Shown in pieces: positions 6,344-10,297 of a DNA stretch of 64,000 nucleotides (position 1 is the first letter of the stretch; the number at the start of each line of letters is the position of its first letter). A model generated the notes under the pieces. That model was given only the letters and a program-made list of their open reading frames with translations, was not told the DNA's origin and did not search any database. The stretch covers positions 1-64,000 of the forward strand of contig CBDDBZ010000018.1 of the NCBI GenBank assembly GCA_965225945.1, written 5' to 3'. The translations under genes were made by a program, and so were the position numbers. This stretch comes from Alphaproteobacteria bacterium (GTDB lineage: Bacteria; Pseudomonadota; Alphaproteobacteria; GCA-2731375).

Positions 6344-7322
6344 CGCGGGCCTCCACGGAATGGGGGCCTAGCGAGTCGCGCCTGCCTCGGTCCCCTCTCC
6401 GCCGAGCATGACGTTGCCGTCGAGCGTCAGGGTGATTACCGTGATGTGCGCGACCGGTGGCCGTTCGCTGGCCGCCGAGCAACATCGAAGGGAAGAGCGA
6501 CGATGAGCCTATCGGACCATGTCGACCTCGAGCAGTTCATCGCGGGTGTGGAACGGCGCAATCCGGGCCAACCGGAATTCGTCCAGGCGGTGCGGGAAGT
6601 CGCCGAGAACGTTTTCGACTACATTCAGGACAAGGTCGAATATCACGAGTATCAAATTCTCCGCCGCATCGCCGAACCCGACCGGGTCGTGAGCTTTCGC
6701 GTCTGCTGGGAGGACGACAACCACAATATCCGCGTGCAGCGCGGCTGGCGGGTCCAGAACAACAATGCGATCGGCCCCTACAAGGGCGGCATCCGCTTCC
6801 ACGCAAACGTCAACGAAAGCGTGCTGAAGTTCCTCGCCTTCGAGCAGACCTTCAAAAACAGCCTCACGGGCCTGCCGATGGGCGGCGGCAAGGGTGGCGC
6901 CAACTTCAACCCGAGGGGAAAGTCCGAGCATGAGGTGATGCGGTTCTGCCAGTCCTTCATGACCGAACTCTATCGCCATGTCGGCGCCGACGTGGACGTG
7001 CCGGCGGGCGACATCGGGGTCGGCGCGCGCGAGATCGGCTACATGTTCGGTCCTTGCCTATCCGGTTATCACCCACACCCACTATATGTAGTGTGCACCC
7101 ACTGAGTAAAGCTCGGTGCAGGTCGAAGCGGAGATATCTCCGGCGATGCCGAGCAGGGACTCGGACGGCATTGTAGCGCCTTTTAGGCGACACTTTAGCG
7201 TGGTGGAAATCCTAATCATTGAGTCGGATTTGGCAAAACGCCACGTTGCATAAAGGACCGTCACTTCATTGAAATTTATCTGAAATCGGAGGTGAACGAC
7301 ACCTATGGAATATTCCAGGAAA

Positions 7323-7630
7323 TCAGAGCTTCATTGAATTGTAGGATTCGAGTGCCGGATTATTCACAAATAGCTCTGTGAACTGGTTTTCAAGTTCCCT
7401 CAATACGTCTATGAAGTAAACGGATTGAGGATCACGTTCTTGCGTGTCGCTTCGTCTTCGCTGCGACTCAAAACGCGCAGGAGACTAACAGGCGCGGACG
7501 GGTTCTTCGCAACGATTCGTGCCAGCGCGTCGCTTTCTTCGACTAGTGCCGTCAATCGCTCAGACGATGTCGTTTCATCAGCAGCTTCCCGTCTGGCCGT
7601 GGGTTTCTTCGTTTTTCCCTTGGTCGCCAC
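7323..7630 (-). pseudogene. Frameshifted leucine-rich-variant (LRV/HEAT-like) repeat protein fragment, cargo of the cassette
   Basis: 73-aa ORF ARIVAKNPSAPVSLLRVLSRSEDEATRKNVILNPFT continues after a 1-nt shift as IDVLRELENQFTELFVNNPAL, a typical NP-repeat pattern. GC content is lower than the flanks. Confidence 0.6.
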
Positions 7631-7695
7631 CGTTCCGTCCCCCGATGTTAAGTACGTGACGTGAATTAAACTCCGGTTCGGTTTTCAGAACAATC

Positions 7696-9291
7696 GTAAC
7701 TGCCCAGGTAGCTGATTTCGATGAGGCTGCGGATTGGGTCTCTGGGGGCAGATTTTGTGGGTTTGGGGCGCTGACGGCCTAGATTTCGTTTGACATAGGG
7801 TGGTTGGTCGATTCTAAGGATTCGATGGATAGGGATGTTCTTGTCTTTTTGTCGAAAGACGAGCTGATCGATGTGGTGCTGGCCCAAGGGTCGCGGCTCG
7901 CCGAGTTCGAACTCCGGCTTGGTGAACTCGAGCGCCGGCTTGGCCTGAACAGCACGAACAGCGGCAAGCCACCGTCGAGCGATGGATTGAACAAGCCACC
8001 GGCGGGTAAAAAGAAGCGCACCAGGAGCCTCCGTAAGAAATCGGCCCGCAAGCCGGGCGGGCAAAAGGGCCACAAGGGCGAGACCCTGCGCCAAGTCGCC
8101 GATCCCGACGCCACCGTCGACCATTATCCCGAGACGTGCCAGTGGTGTGGTTCGGGATTGACGCCGGATATGGCTACCGGCCATGGGGCCCGCCAGGTTT
8201 TCGATCTACCCGAGCCCCGGCCCCTGGTGGTCACGGAGCATCGGGCGCATCGCTGCCGTTGCGGGCATTGCGGCACGTACACTCGGGCTTCTTTTCCCGT
8301 CGCCATCACCGGCCCGGTTCAATACGGCGCTCGGATCGGAGCCATGGTGGTCTACCTGTCGCACTACCAACTCCTGCCCGAGGACCGCCTGGCTGAATTG
8401 ATGAAGGATCTGTTCGGGGCGGAACTGTCTCCGGCGAGCCTCGCGCGGAGGGGCGGGAACAGCGCCGAGTCCGTCCAAGGCGTCGTCGATGTGATCCGCG
8501 AACTGGTGAAATCGGCGCCGGTCAAGCACATGGACGAGACCGGCTTGCGGATCGCCGGGCGGACCCAATGGTTGCACGTCGCCTCGACCGCGCGGTTGAC
8601 CTTCTATCGGGTCTCGGAGCGACGCGGCAGCCTGCTCGGCGGAGTCGGCGGCATCGTCGTCCATGACCACTGGAAGCCGTACTTTACGATGGAGGGCGTA
8701 CGGCACGCGCTGTGCAACGCCCATCACCTGCGCGAGTTGCAAGCCCTGATCGAGATCGAGAAGGAGGGCTGGGCACGCAAGATGTAGAGACTATTGCGCC
8801 GCGCCTGCCACGCGGTAAATCTCGCCCGGGAGCGGGGCGTGGCGCTGAAACCAGGCCTCGTCGAGCGCTTCCGAGGGTGTTACGACGCGATCACGGCCGA
8901 GGGCATCGCCTTTCACGAGGCACAACCTCCTCTTGCGCCCAGATCGAGCAAGGCCAAGCGCCGGGGAAGCAAGCCGCGCCGCACCGGGCACAACCTTCTC
9001 CGGCGCCTTCAGACACACAAGGAAGACGCGCTGCGCTTCCTCATCAATTTCGCCGTGCCGTTCACCAACAATCAGGCCGAGCAGGACGGGCGCATGATGA
9101 AGGTCAAGCAGAAAATCTCCGGCGGCTTCCGCAGCCAGAAAGGCGCCGAAGACTTTGCCACCGTCCGCGGCTTCATCTCGACCGCCAGAAAACAGGGCTG
9201 GAACATCATCCAGGCGCTCATGGAAAATCCCGAAACCCTGATCGAGCGTCTCCACGCCGCCTAAAAGGCCACCATGTACCTGGGCAGTTAC
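7696..9291 (+). mobile_element. IS66-family element (single-ORF, ISBst12-like), nested in the cassette
   Basis: 15-bp TIR GTAACTGCCCAGGTA / TACCTGGGCAGTTAC. 8-bp TSD GAACAATC at 7688-7695 and 9292-9299. Confidence 0.95.
7825..9264 (+). pseudogene. IS66 transposase (TnpC) with in-frame TAG at 8785-8787
   Basis: NSTNSGKPPSSD, GGQKGHKG, CxxC zinc motifs, MDETG, LCNAHHLREL, PFTNNQAEQDGRMMKVKQKISGGFRS. ORFs 7804-8787 and 8794-9264 are in the same frame. Confidence 0.92.
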
Positions 9292-10297
9292 GAACAATCA
9301 AGAATTAGCCGGATCGCCTCCTCAATGCGCCTGCGCCGGCCCTTGCCTGCAGTCCAAGGAGACACACTACATATAGTGGGTGTGGGTGATAACCGGATAG
9401 GCAAGGTTCGGTCAATACAAGCGCATCACCAACCAGTTCACCGGCGTGCTGACGGGCAAGGGACTGGAATTCGGCGGCAGCCTGGTGCGGACCGAGGCGA
9501 CCGGCTATGGCGCGGTCTATTTTCTGCAAAACATGCTGCGGCGGGGTGACGACGACATCGAGGGCAAGGCCTGCGTGATCTCCGGTTCGGGCAATGTCGC
9601 CGTCCACGCGGCCGAAAAGATCGACCAGTTGGGTGGCAAGGTGGTGACGCTCTCGGACGCGGGCGGCTTCATCCACGACGCCGAAGGCATCGATGCGGAG
9701 AAGCTCGCCTGGATCAAGCAACTCAAGGGCAAGCGCCGGGGACGCATCGCCGAATACGTGGACGCCTTCAAGGGCGCGTCGTTTCACGAAGGCGCGCGGC
9801 CTTGGGGCGTACCTTGCGATCTCGCGTTGCCCTGCGCGACGCAGAACGAGCTCGCCGGCGAGGATGCCACCAGGCTGGTCGAGAACGGCTGCATCGGGGT
9901 TGCCGAGGGCGCCAACATGCCGAGCGATCTCGACGCCGTCCACCATTTCAAGGCGGCGCGAATCCTGTTCGCGCCGGGCAAGGCGGCGAACGCCGGCGGG
10001 GTCGCGGTGTCGGGGCTGGAGATGAGCCAGAACGCGGCCCGGATGTCGTGGAAGGAAGACGAGCTGCAAGCCCTGCTGGTGGAGATCATGGCCGGCATTC
10101 ACGACCGCTGCGTCGAATACGGCGACACCGGAGAGGGCACCCATATCGACTATGTCCGGGGCGCCAACATCGCCGGTTTCGTCAAGGTCGCCGACGCCAT
10201 GCTGGCCTATGGCGTGGTCTGATGGGCCGAATTTGGCCCGCTCCGCCGCGTGGCGGAGCGGCAGAGGGCCGGCCTCGGGGACATCAGAGTCGGACTC

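Follow-up and report, generated by a model that had tools for sequence, protein, structure and literature searches.

A gdhA gene split by a non-autonomous IS1595-family cassette whose small LRV_2 reading frame is conserved across metagenomes

The gdhA gene on contig CBDDBZ010000018.1 of an Alphaproteobacteria bacterium (assembly GCA_965225945.1) is interrupted by a mobile element, which was examined here within a window consisting of the first 64,000 nucleotides of the contig. The insert is very probably a non-autonomous mobile insertion cassette (MIC) of the IS1595 family, derived from an ISAcr1-like insertion sequence (IS) and moved in trans by an IS of the same genome. It has inverted ends around a passenger open reading frame (ORF), occurs in many copies flanked by target duplications, shares its ends with a partner IS whose transposase genes are intact, and lies at a site that is polymorphic in public sequence data. 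The 67 near-identical copies, the intact partner genes and the site polymorphism together point to mobilisation in trans, and we infer that the 339-residue transposase of the genome is the actual mover. The break in gdhA is explained by the ordinary insertion of such a non-autonomous cassette and represents neither a new kind of element nor a switch. What appears to be new is the cassette family, a variant of the MIC and miniature inverted-repeat transposable element (MITE) kind that carries a conserved gene for a 102-residue protein. The coordinates of all features are given in Table 1.

The two halves of gdhA flanking the insert were recognised by Pfam as ELFV_dehydrog_N (3.4e-50, 5′ part) and ELFV_dehydrog (6e-83, 3′ part), and the hexamer TTCGGT is found on both sides of the insert. 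Deletion of the insert and one target repeat in silico gave an open frame for a 452-residue GdhA starting from the ATG at 6503 with no further lesion in the gene, reproducing the reconstruction made in the first-pass annotation. The restored frame is uninformative on precise excision, because it is obtained for any insertion that duplicates its target. No full match to ELFV_dehydrog other than the split gene was present in the genome (G000; 6.27 Mb in 39 contigs, with an estimated contamination of 5.58%). The genome also contains a frame of 1557 residues with a Glu_synthase domain, so ammonium assimilation could still run via glutamate synthase. A second, weak match to ELFV_dehydrog (5.2e-10 and 7.4e-7) was observed at 60826-61296, within an open frame of 414 residues near the end of the window.

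The insert is bounded by a perfect inverted repeat (7052-7095 and 9363-9406) that is identical at 44 of 44 positions, and a 31-nt piece of this repeat occurs twice in the window while none is expected from shuffled sequences. The ends had previously been described as 44-bp perfect terminal inverted repeats (TIRs) next to a 6-bp target duplication. The 44/44 match is real, but it includes one target base at each side, the first boundaries having been placed one base too far out at each end. When the ends were moved in by one base, all 51 perfect six-base repeats around the genomic copies described below became perfect 8-bp repeats. The outer bases are not G...C in 26 of these 51 perfectly duplicated copies, which a 6-bp model cannot explain, and the outermost C/G pair therefore belongs to the target and not to the element. 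A single mismatch was present in 52 of 151 genomic ends, and in the copies inspected this was the outermost base. The corrected element, 7053-9405 (CTTGCC...GGCAAG), is 2353 bp long with 43-bp TIRs and an 8-bp target duplication, GTTCGGTC. The target preference is approximately S-W-W-Y-R-W-W-S, an A+T-rich and roughly palindromic core in a genome of 66% G+C. The 6-bp duplication with a 44-bp TIR starting CC was an illusion that arose because the target often begins with G and ends with C, and the case shows how such a G...C preference can disguise an 8-bp duplication as a 6-bp one with a longer TIR.

Without the IS nested inside it, the core of the window copy is 751 bp, the length originally reported, and it contains no transposase gene other than a remnant of about 31 codons. 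Relative to the genomic consensus this copy has two substitutions and two deletions, one of 5 bp and one of 1 bp, the latter shifting the frame of the passenger ORF. The mutational damage noted at the outset in both cargo and nested IS was confirmed, the cargo by this frameshift and the nested transposase by an internal TAG codon.

The 31-nt end motif gave 161 matches in the genome with up to three mismatches, compared to none for a reversed control, and the 44-mer end gave 151 matches with up to six substitutions. Adjacent plus and minus ends bounded 67 copies, of which 46 have one standard length of 755 bp, and a perfect 8-bp duplication flanks 51 of the 67. Divergence was scored on 33 of 61 aligned copies, the other 28 being in the opposite orientation and left unscored; the scored copies have 0-31 differences from the consensus, with no more than four in 26 of the 33. 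Three old copies (C28:77652-78520, C29:~77330-78161 and C32:77280-77984) contain many short indels and have lost the ORF. Those on C28 and C29 are 80-84% identical to the consensus, with indels that are mostly short G+C-rich insertions in a cassette that is A+T-richer than the genome. Weak tblastn matches to the ORF (41-55% identity) were considered as diverged functional paralogues, a possibility that was ruled out when nucleotide alignment revealed them to be decayed, indel-rich copies.

A looser terminus search of the genome revealed a second set of elements of approximately 1105 bp at about 12 loci. This IS encodes a protein of 339 residues matching DDE_Tnp_IS1595 (3.3e-37) and Zn_ribbon_IS1595 (6.9e-14) in Pfam and transpos_IS1595 (1.2e-56) in NCBIfam. 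The frame is open in 7 of the 11 copies found by the start motif, and 6 of the roughly 12 loci have a perfect 8-bp duplication. The cassette consensus resembles the 1105-bp IS at both ends, with 79% identity to the transposase-3′ end over nucleotides 1-109 and 94% identity to the opposite end over the last 33 nt. Among annotated plasmids, the nearest match to the 339-residue protein was the ‘IS1595-like element ISAcr1 family transposase’ of Acidiphilium (8 records; the ISAcr1 label is that of the RefSeq annotation), which is 81.7% identical over 338 residues and has the same zinc ribbon and DDE_Tnp_IS1595 architecture. One copy of ISAcr1 on an Acidiphilium cryptum JF-5 plasmid has the same first 15 nt as the cassette and is flanked by an 8-bp repeat, ATATATTG. 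The ends had been regarded as unassignable and possibly those of an undescribed family, with a match to a catalogued IS named as the observation that would speak against this; such a match is provided by ISAcr1, the ends also match the IS1595-family IS of the genome, and the length of the duplication is that of the family. An 8-bp target duplication is typical of the IS1595 family. The cassette has both the family-like termini and this duplication, while the zinc ribbon and DDE_Tnp_IS1595 transposase are present in the partner IS and absent from the cassette, which is thus an IS1595 derivative and not an IS, its transposase being reduced to the remnant. In PMC12561309, A/T-rich 8-bp repeats are described for another IS1595-family IS and a duplication of 7-9 bp is given for one IS1595 subgroup.

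At C1:44070-45700, C14:57696-59326, C15:7573-9203, C33:95821-97478 and C38:177697-179354 the IS is present in a longer version of 1631-1658 bp, with an extra inverted 506-bp copy of the transposase-3′ end, and the perfect 8-bp duplications at C14 and C38 indicate that it moves as a unit.

The following sequence of events would account for the insert. The cassette has kept the ends to which the transposase binds, the 43-bp perfect TIRs, together with the remnant of the transposase 3′ end, and the 102-residue LRV_2 ORF has taken the position and the orientation of the transposase gene. Transposase would be supplied in trans by the 1105-bp IS with matching termini in the same genome, and insertion would take place at a staggered 8-bp target, a single event having placed one copy in gdhA at GTTCGGTC. 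A 1596-bp IS66-family element subsequently inserted into the gdhA cassette, after which the window copy acquired its two small deletions, two substitutions and the nonsense codon in the nested transposase. The suggestion that the cassette moved recently in trans, carrying old cargo, holds with respect to the recent activity and to the movement in trans of an element lacking a transposase, but the ORF of the family is conserved and under selection. Some observations weigh against this account. Sixteen of the 67 copies lack a perfect duplication, and several of these look like recombination products or composites. The inner TIR and subterminal sequence differ from those of the genome's IS (79% over nucleotides 1-109), and the true parent of the cassette may be a related IS rather than the 1105-bp IS. 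In the public sequencing runs discussed below, contigs end at the repeat and none spans an occupied junction.

The passenger ORF matches the Pfam family LRV_2 and encodes 102 residues in the consensus. Of the 67 genomic copies, 55 have the 102-codon frame intact and in 46 it matches the consensus exactly; the window copy belongs to the 12 in which the frame is broken, here by the 1-bp deletion at consensus position 364. Database searching gave 234 protein relatives at E ≤ 0.001; among the 120 listed, most have 100-103 residues and 73-98% identity, and many come from contigs whose length is close to that of the element. The ORF was located at 70 metagenome loci, with at least one ISAcr1-type end at 67 of them and with both ends 400-900 bp apart at 51. 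These complete elements are 516-582 bp long in 48 cases and 754-755 bp in 3, a perfect 8-bp duplication is present in 14, and at least 102 codons are open in 50 of the 51. By tblastn, no transposase was detected beside the ORF at any of the 70 loci, except for a 31-residue remnant in three long forms.

Comparison of 44 distinct coding sequences gave a median pairwise ratio of nonsynonymous to synonymous substitution rates (dN/dS) of 0.28, with values below 1 in all 914 pairs with dS > 0.1 (of 946 pairs, which are not independent of one another). Diversity at codon positions 1, 2 and 3 was 20.9, 12.2 and 27.6, respectively, and so was highest at the third position. In 45 compact elements the diversity of the ORF (0.195) and of the TIRs (0.14-0.17) was lower than that of the spacers (0.31-0.44). 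On these substitution patterns the LRV_2 ORF is conserved and under purifying selection across the metagenome elements.

The insert might also be a plain deletion derivative of an IS, an oversized MITE in which the ORF is non-functional captured DNA that seems conserved because the copies are young. The copies within the genome are nearly identical and hence silent on selection, and in the old copies on C28, C29 and C32 indels abound and the ORF is gone. The standard copy has no promoter-like site beyond chance, and the ORF resembles a single, often N-terminal, unit of long LRV/HEAT repeat proteins, which is what capture of a 5′ gene fragment would produce. Young non-functional DNA is, however, difficult to reconcile with the 234 relatives and the 100-103 residues of most of those listed, with the retention of the frame in 50 of 51 complete metagenome elements, with the dN/dS values and the codon-position pattern, or with an ORF and TIRs that are less diverse than the spacers, and we consider this explanation unlikely.

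A profile search with the ORF gave 5047 proteins at E ≤ 0.001, the best of which are mostly long LRV/HEAT repeat arrays; these arrays match the ORF 5-19 times, often starting near the N terminus of the array. The ORF probably originated by capture of part of a long LRV/HEAT repeat gene. An AlphaFold model built from an alignment of 100 sequences (mean pLDDT 75.7) consists of a disordered basic tail at residues 1-20 and six short helices, and Foldseek retrieved no PDB structure for this model at E ≤ 0.001, the rows listed being generic HEAT/ARM-like ones. A scan of the standard copy for promoters and terminators returned one promoter-like and one terminator-like site, no more than in shuffled sequences. 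RNA run X13 yielded contigs over the cassette with a high summed depth, which is uninformative on expression with approximately 67 copies and with contigs instead of reads. A complex prediction for the 339-residue transposase and the 102-residue protein scored 0.24 against a mark of 0.32, a result that counts neither for nor against binding. It is tentatively conceivable, although doubtful, that the 102-residue protein serves the cassette itself, either by acting as an accessory factor, capturing the ISAcr1-type transposase or redirecting it to the cassette ends, or by protecting the cassette.

The gdhA site was examined further by aligning Logan contigs of four public runs to positions 6700-9800 of the window at a likeness threshold of 90. 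An empty-site joint from 7044 to 9406, with 8 letters that fit either side, was present in the contigs of two of the four runs. In run X1 the joint has a depth of 16.6 and only 24 letters on its shorter side, in run X12 it has 57 letters and a depth of 2.1, and a more diverged uninterrupted gdhA was also present in X1. An uninterrupted site exists in the same or closely related populations, which fits a recent insertion that is still polymorphic. In the original interpretation the insert belonged to a hitherto undescribed cargo-cassette family, was capable of precise excision and served as a reversible gdhA switch, and the empty site together with the otherwise undamaged gdhA is compatible with this. 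The ends and the duplication length, however, are those of the IS1595 family, cells or close relatives into which the element never inserted would show an empty site just as well, and the restored frame is generic. One of the two joints is short and the other shallow at the threshold used, and with a 1.6-kb nested IS and mutations of its own the window copy is no freshly cycling element. A switch is therefore very improbable, and the empty site may be a never-inserted allele, with no excision implied.

A wrong join of a repeat into gdhA during metagenome assembly might be suspected from the 39 contigs, the 5.58% contamination and the run contigs that end at the repeat boundary, but it deserves almost no credence, as both junctions lie on one contig and a chimeric join would not yield the same 8-bp repeat exactly where the 452-residue frame is restored.

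The element nested within the gdhA cassette is an active IS66-family IS of which the window copy has one nonsense mutation. It has the DDE_Tnp_IS66 and zf-IS66 domains and the 8-bp duplication of that family, and no ORFs resembling tnpA or tnpB were found in its 1596 bp. The genome contains 16 full-length copies, 15 of them with identical 8-bp flanks and 11 with an open frame of 486 residues; the TAG of the window copy is at codon 328, where other copies read Q. At several other loci it is the IS66-family IS that is interrupted by the 755-bp cassette, for example at C30:144605-146962, C37:174515-176905, C25:67332-69690 and C35:217498-219865. The cassette and the IS66-family IS thus nest in each other in both directions, and this mutual interruption at several loci indicates that both were active in the same period.

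Table 1. Features of the interrupted gdhA locus, in window coordinates.
Feature	Position	Strand	Remarks
gdhA 5′ part	6503..7052	+	ATG at 6503; includes left target duplication; Pfam ELFV_dehydrog_N; joins 3′ part in frame
Left 8-bp target duplication GTTCGGTC	7045..7052	.	8-bp model from 51/67 genomic copies
Cassette with nested IS	7053..9405	.	67 end-bounded genomic copies; ends match IS1595-family IS and ISAcr1
Left TIR, 43 bp	7053..7095	+	44/44 repeat, boundary corrected from genomic copies
Subterminal transposase-3′ remnant (last ~31 codons)	7053..7155	-	79% identity to IS end; remnant frame
LRV_2 ORF	7323..7630	-	102 aa in consensus; here frameshifted, 73 codons open (7409-7630); Pfam LRV_2 2.9e-08
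Left 8-bp duplication GAACAATC	7688..7695	.	Made by nested IS
Nested single-ORF IS66-family IS, 1596 bp	7696..9291	+	Pfam DDE_Tnp_IS66, zf-IS66, DUF6444; NCBIfam transpos_IS66
Nested IS transposase frame	7804-9264	+	Interrupted by TAG at 8785-8787
Right 8-bp duplication GAACAATC	9292..9299	.	Made by nested IS
Right TIR, 43 bp	9363..9405	-	Same basis as left TIR
Right 8-bp target duplication GTTCGGTC	9406..9413	.	Sequence and genomic copies
gdhA 3′ part	9406..10222	+	Pfam ELFV_dehydrog; in-frame join

Several cassette copies elsewhere in the genome occur in composite arrangements. At C24:55786-61169 two copies bracket 3.9 kb containing TPP_enzyme_C and Oxidoreduct_C frames, with the outer 8-mer GATCAGAC, and at C33:252803-254713 two copies bracket 401 bp, with the outer 8-mer GTTGATTC. 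None of these bracketing copies has a duplication of its own, and the same 8-mer lies outside each pair; by their layout the pairs look like compound transposons, or like what results when a circle recombines into a resident copy. At C26:1261-3128 and C32:60181-62048 a cassette and an IS lie end to end, exactly 8 bp apart, and at C26 the 8-mer GTTCGATC is found to the left of, between and to the right of the two elements. In run X1, three contigs connect a right end with a left end, and the spacers leave exactly 8 nt from GGCAAG to CTTGCC. Ends with this spacing could have been generated by insertion into an existing duplication, or could be abutted-end junctions.

Matches at E ≤ 0.001 were obtained in 9 of the 61 genomes searched, G000 included, and pieces of the 755-bp form were present at 99-100% identity in one genome each from the same genus, a different genus and a different family. 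An order-level search detected the ORF in 2 of 33 genomes, namely G000 and, as a fragment, G002. The IS ends were found in at least 105 stretches, in metagenome-assembled genomes (MAGs) labelled Micropepsaceae, Alphaproteobacteria, Rhodospirillales, Acidisphaera, Stellaceae and, in one case, Deltaproteobacteria. Several MAGs labelled Micropepsaceae and Alphaproteobacteria bacterium encode transposases 98-99% identical to that of G000 (loci within L045-L124), which suggests recent horizontal spread of the IS. The compact elements of approximately 540 bp, compared to 755 bp in G000, occur across many metagenomes.

When compared with known systems, the cassette shares with ISAcr1 the first 15 nt of the termini and the 8-bp duplication, but ISAcr1 is autonomous while the cassette lacks a transposase, carries the LRV_2 ORF and has a different inner TIR. 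The cassette has the features of a MIC: inverted ends of IS type around a passenger ORF, no transposase, a duplicated target and, elsewhere in the genome, a cognate IS as the source of transposase. IS231-MIC231 of Bacillus cereus is an example of such a pair, and the passenger genes of MICs vary between cassettes. In contrast to MIC231, the present cassettes belong to a different IS family and have one small ORF conserved across hundreds of variants, in elements that are near the minimum size able to hold it (516-582 bp). Like a MITE, the cassette is non-autonomous, has borrowed its ends from an IS and is present in 67 bounded copies that are near-identical from a recent burst. MITEs are non-coding by definition and usually shorter than 755 bp, whereas the cassette, at 755 bp, encodes a 102-residue protein that is under purifying selection (median dN/dS 0.28), and it is outside that class. 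Siguier et al. 2009 reportedly described IS1595-family ISs with passenger genes, named ‘transporter IS’, that blur the line between IS and transposon. These belong to the same family and also have extra genes, but they keep their transposase, while among the 70 metagenome loci no copy had the ORF and a transposase together. A limited literature search found no description of the cassette family and nothing that links ‘leucine rich repeat variant’ with ‘insertion sequence’, and the name ISAcr1 was not met with in the literature it covered. PMC3129680 already names transposase-less cargo cassettes as a class, the MICs.

The genome is rich in ISs, and a non-autonomous element has recently burst to approximately 67 copies, inactivating genes. 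Non-autonomous bacterial elements are usually seen either as non-coding MITEs or as MICs that carry arbitrary cargo. If the 102-residue protein does serve the cassette, the 516-755-bp elements would form a class of their own, widespread miniature elements that carry a gene and live as parasites of an IS, and would not be passive deletion derivatives. A conserved gene specific to the element would suggest that the hitch-hiker aids its own spread or retention.

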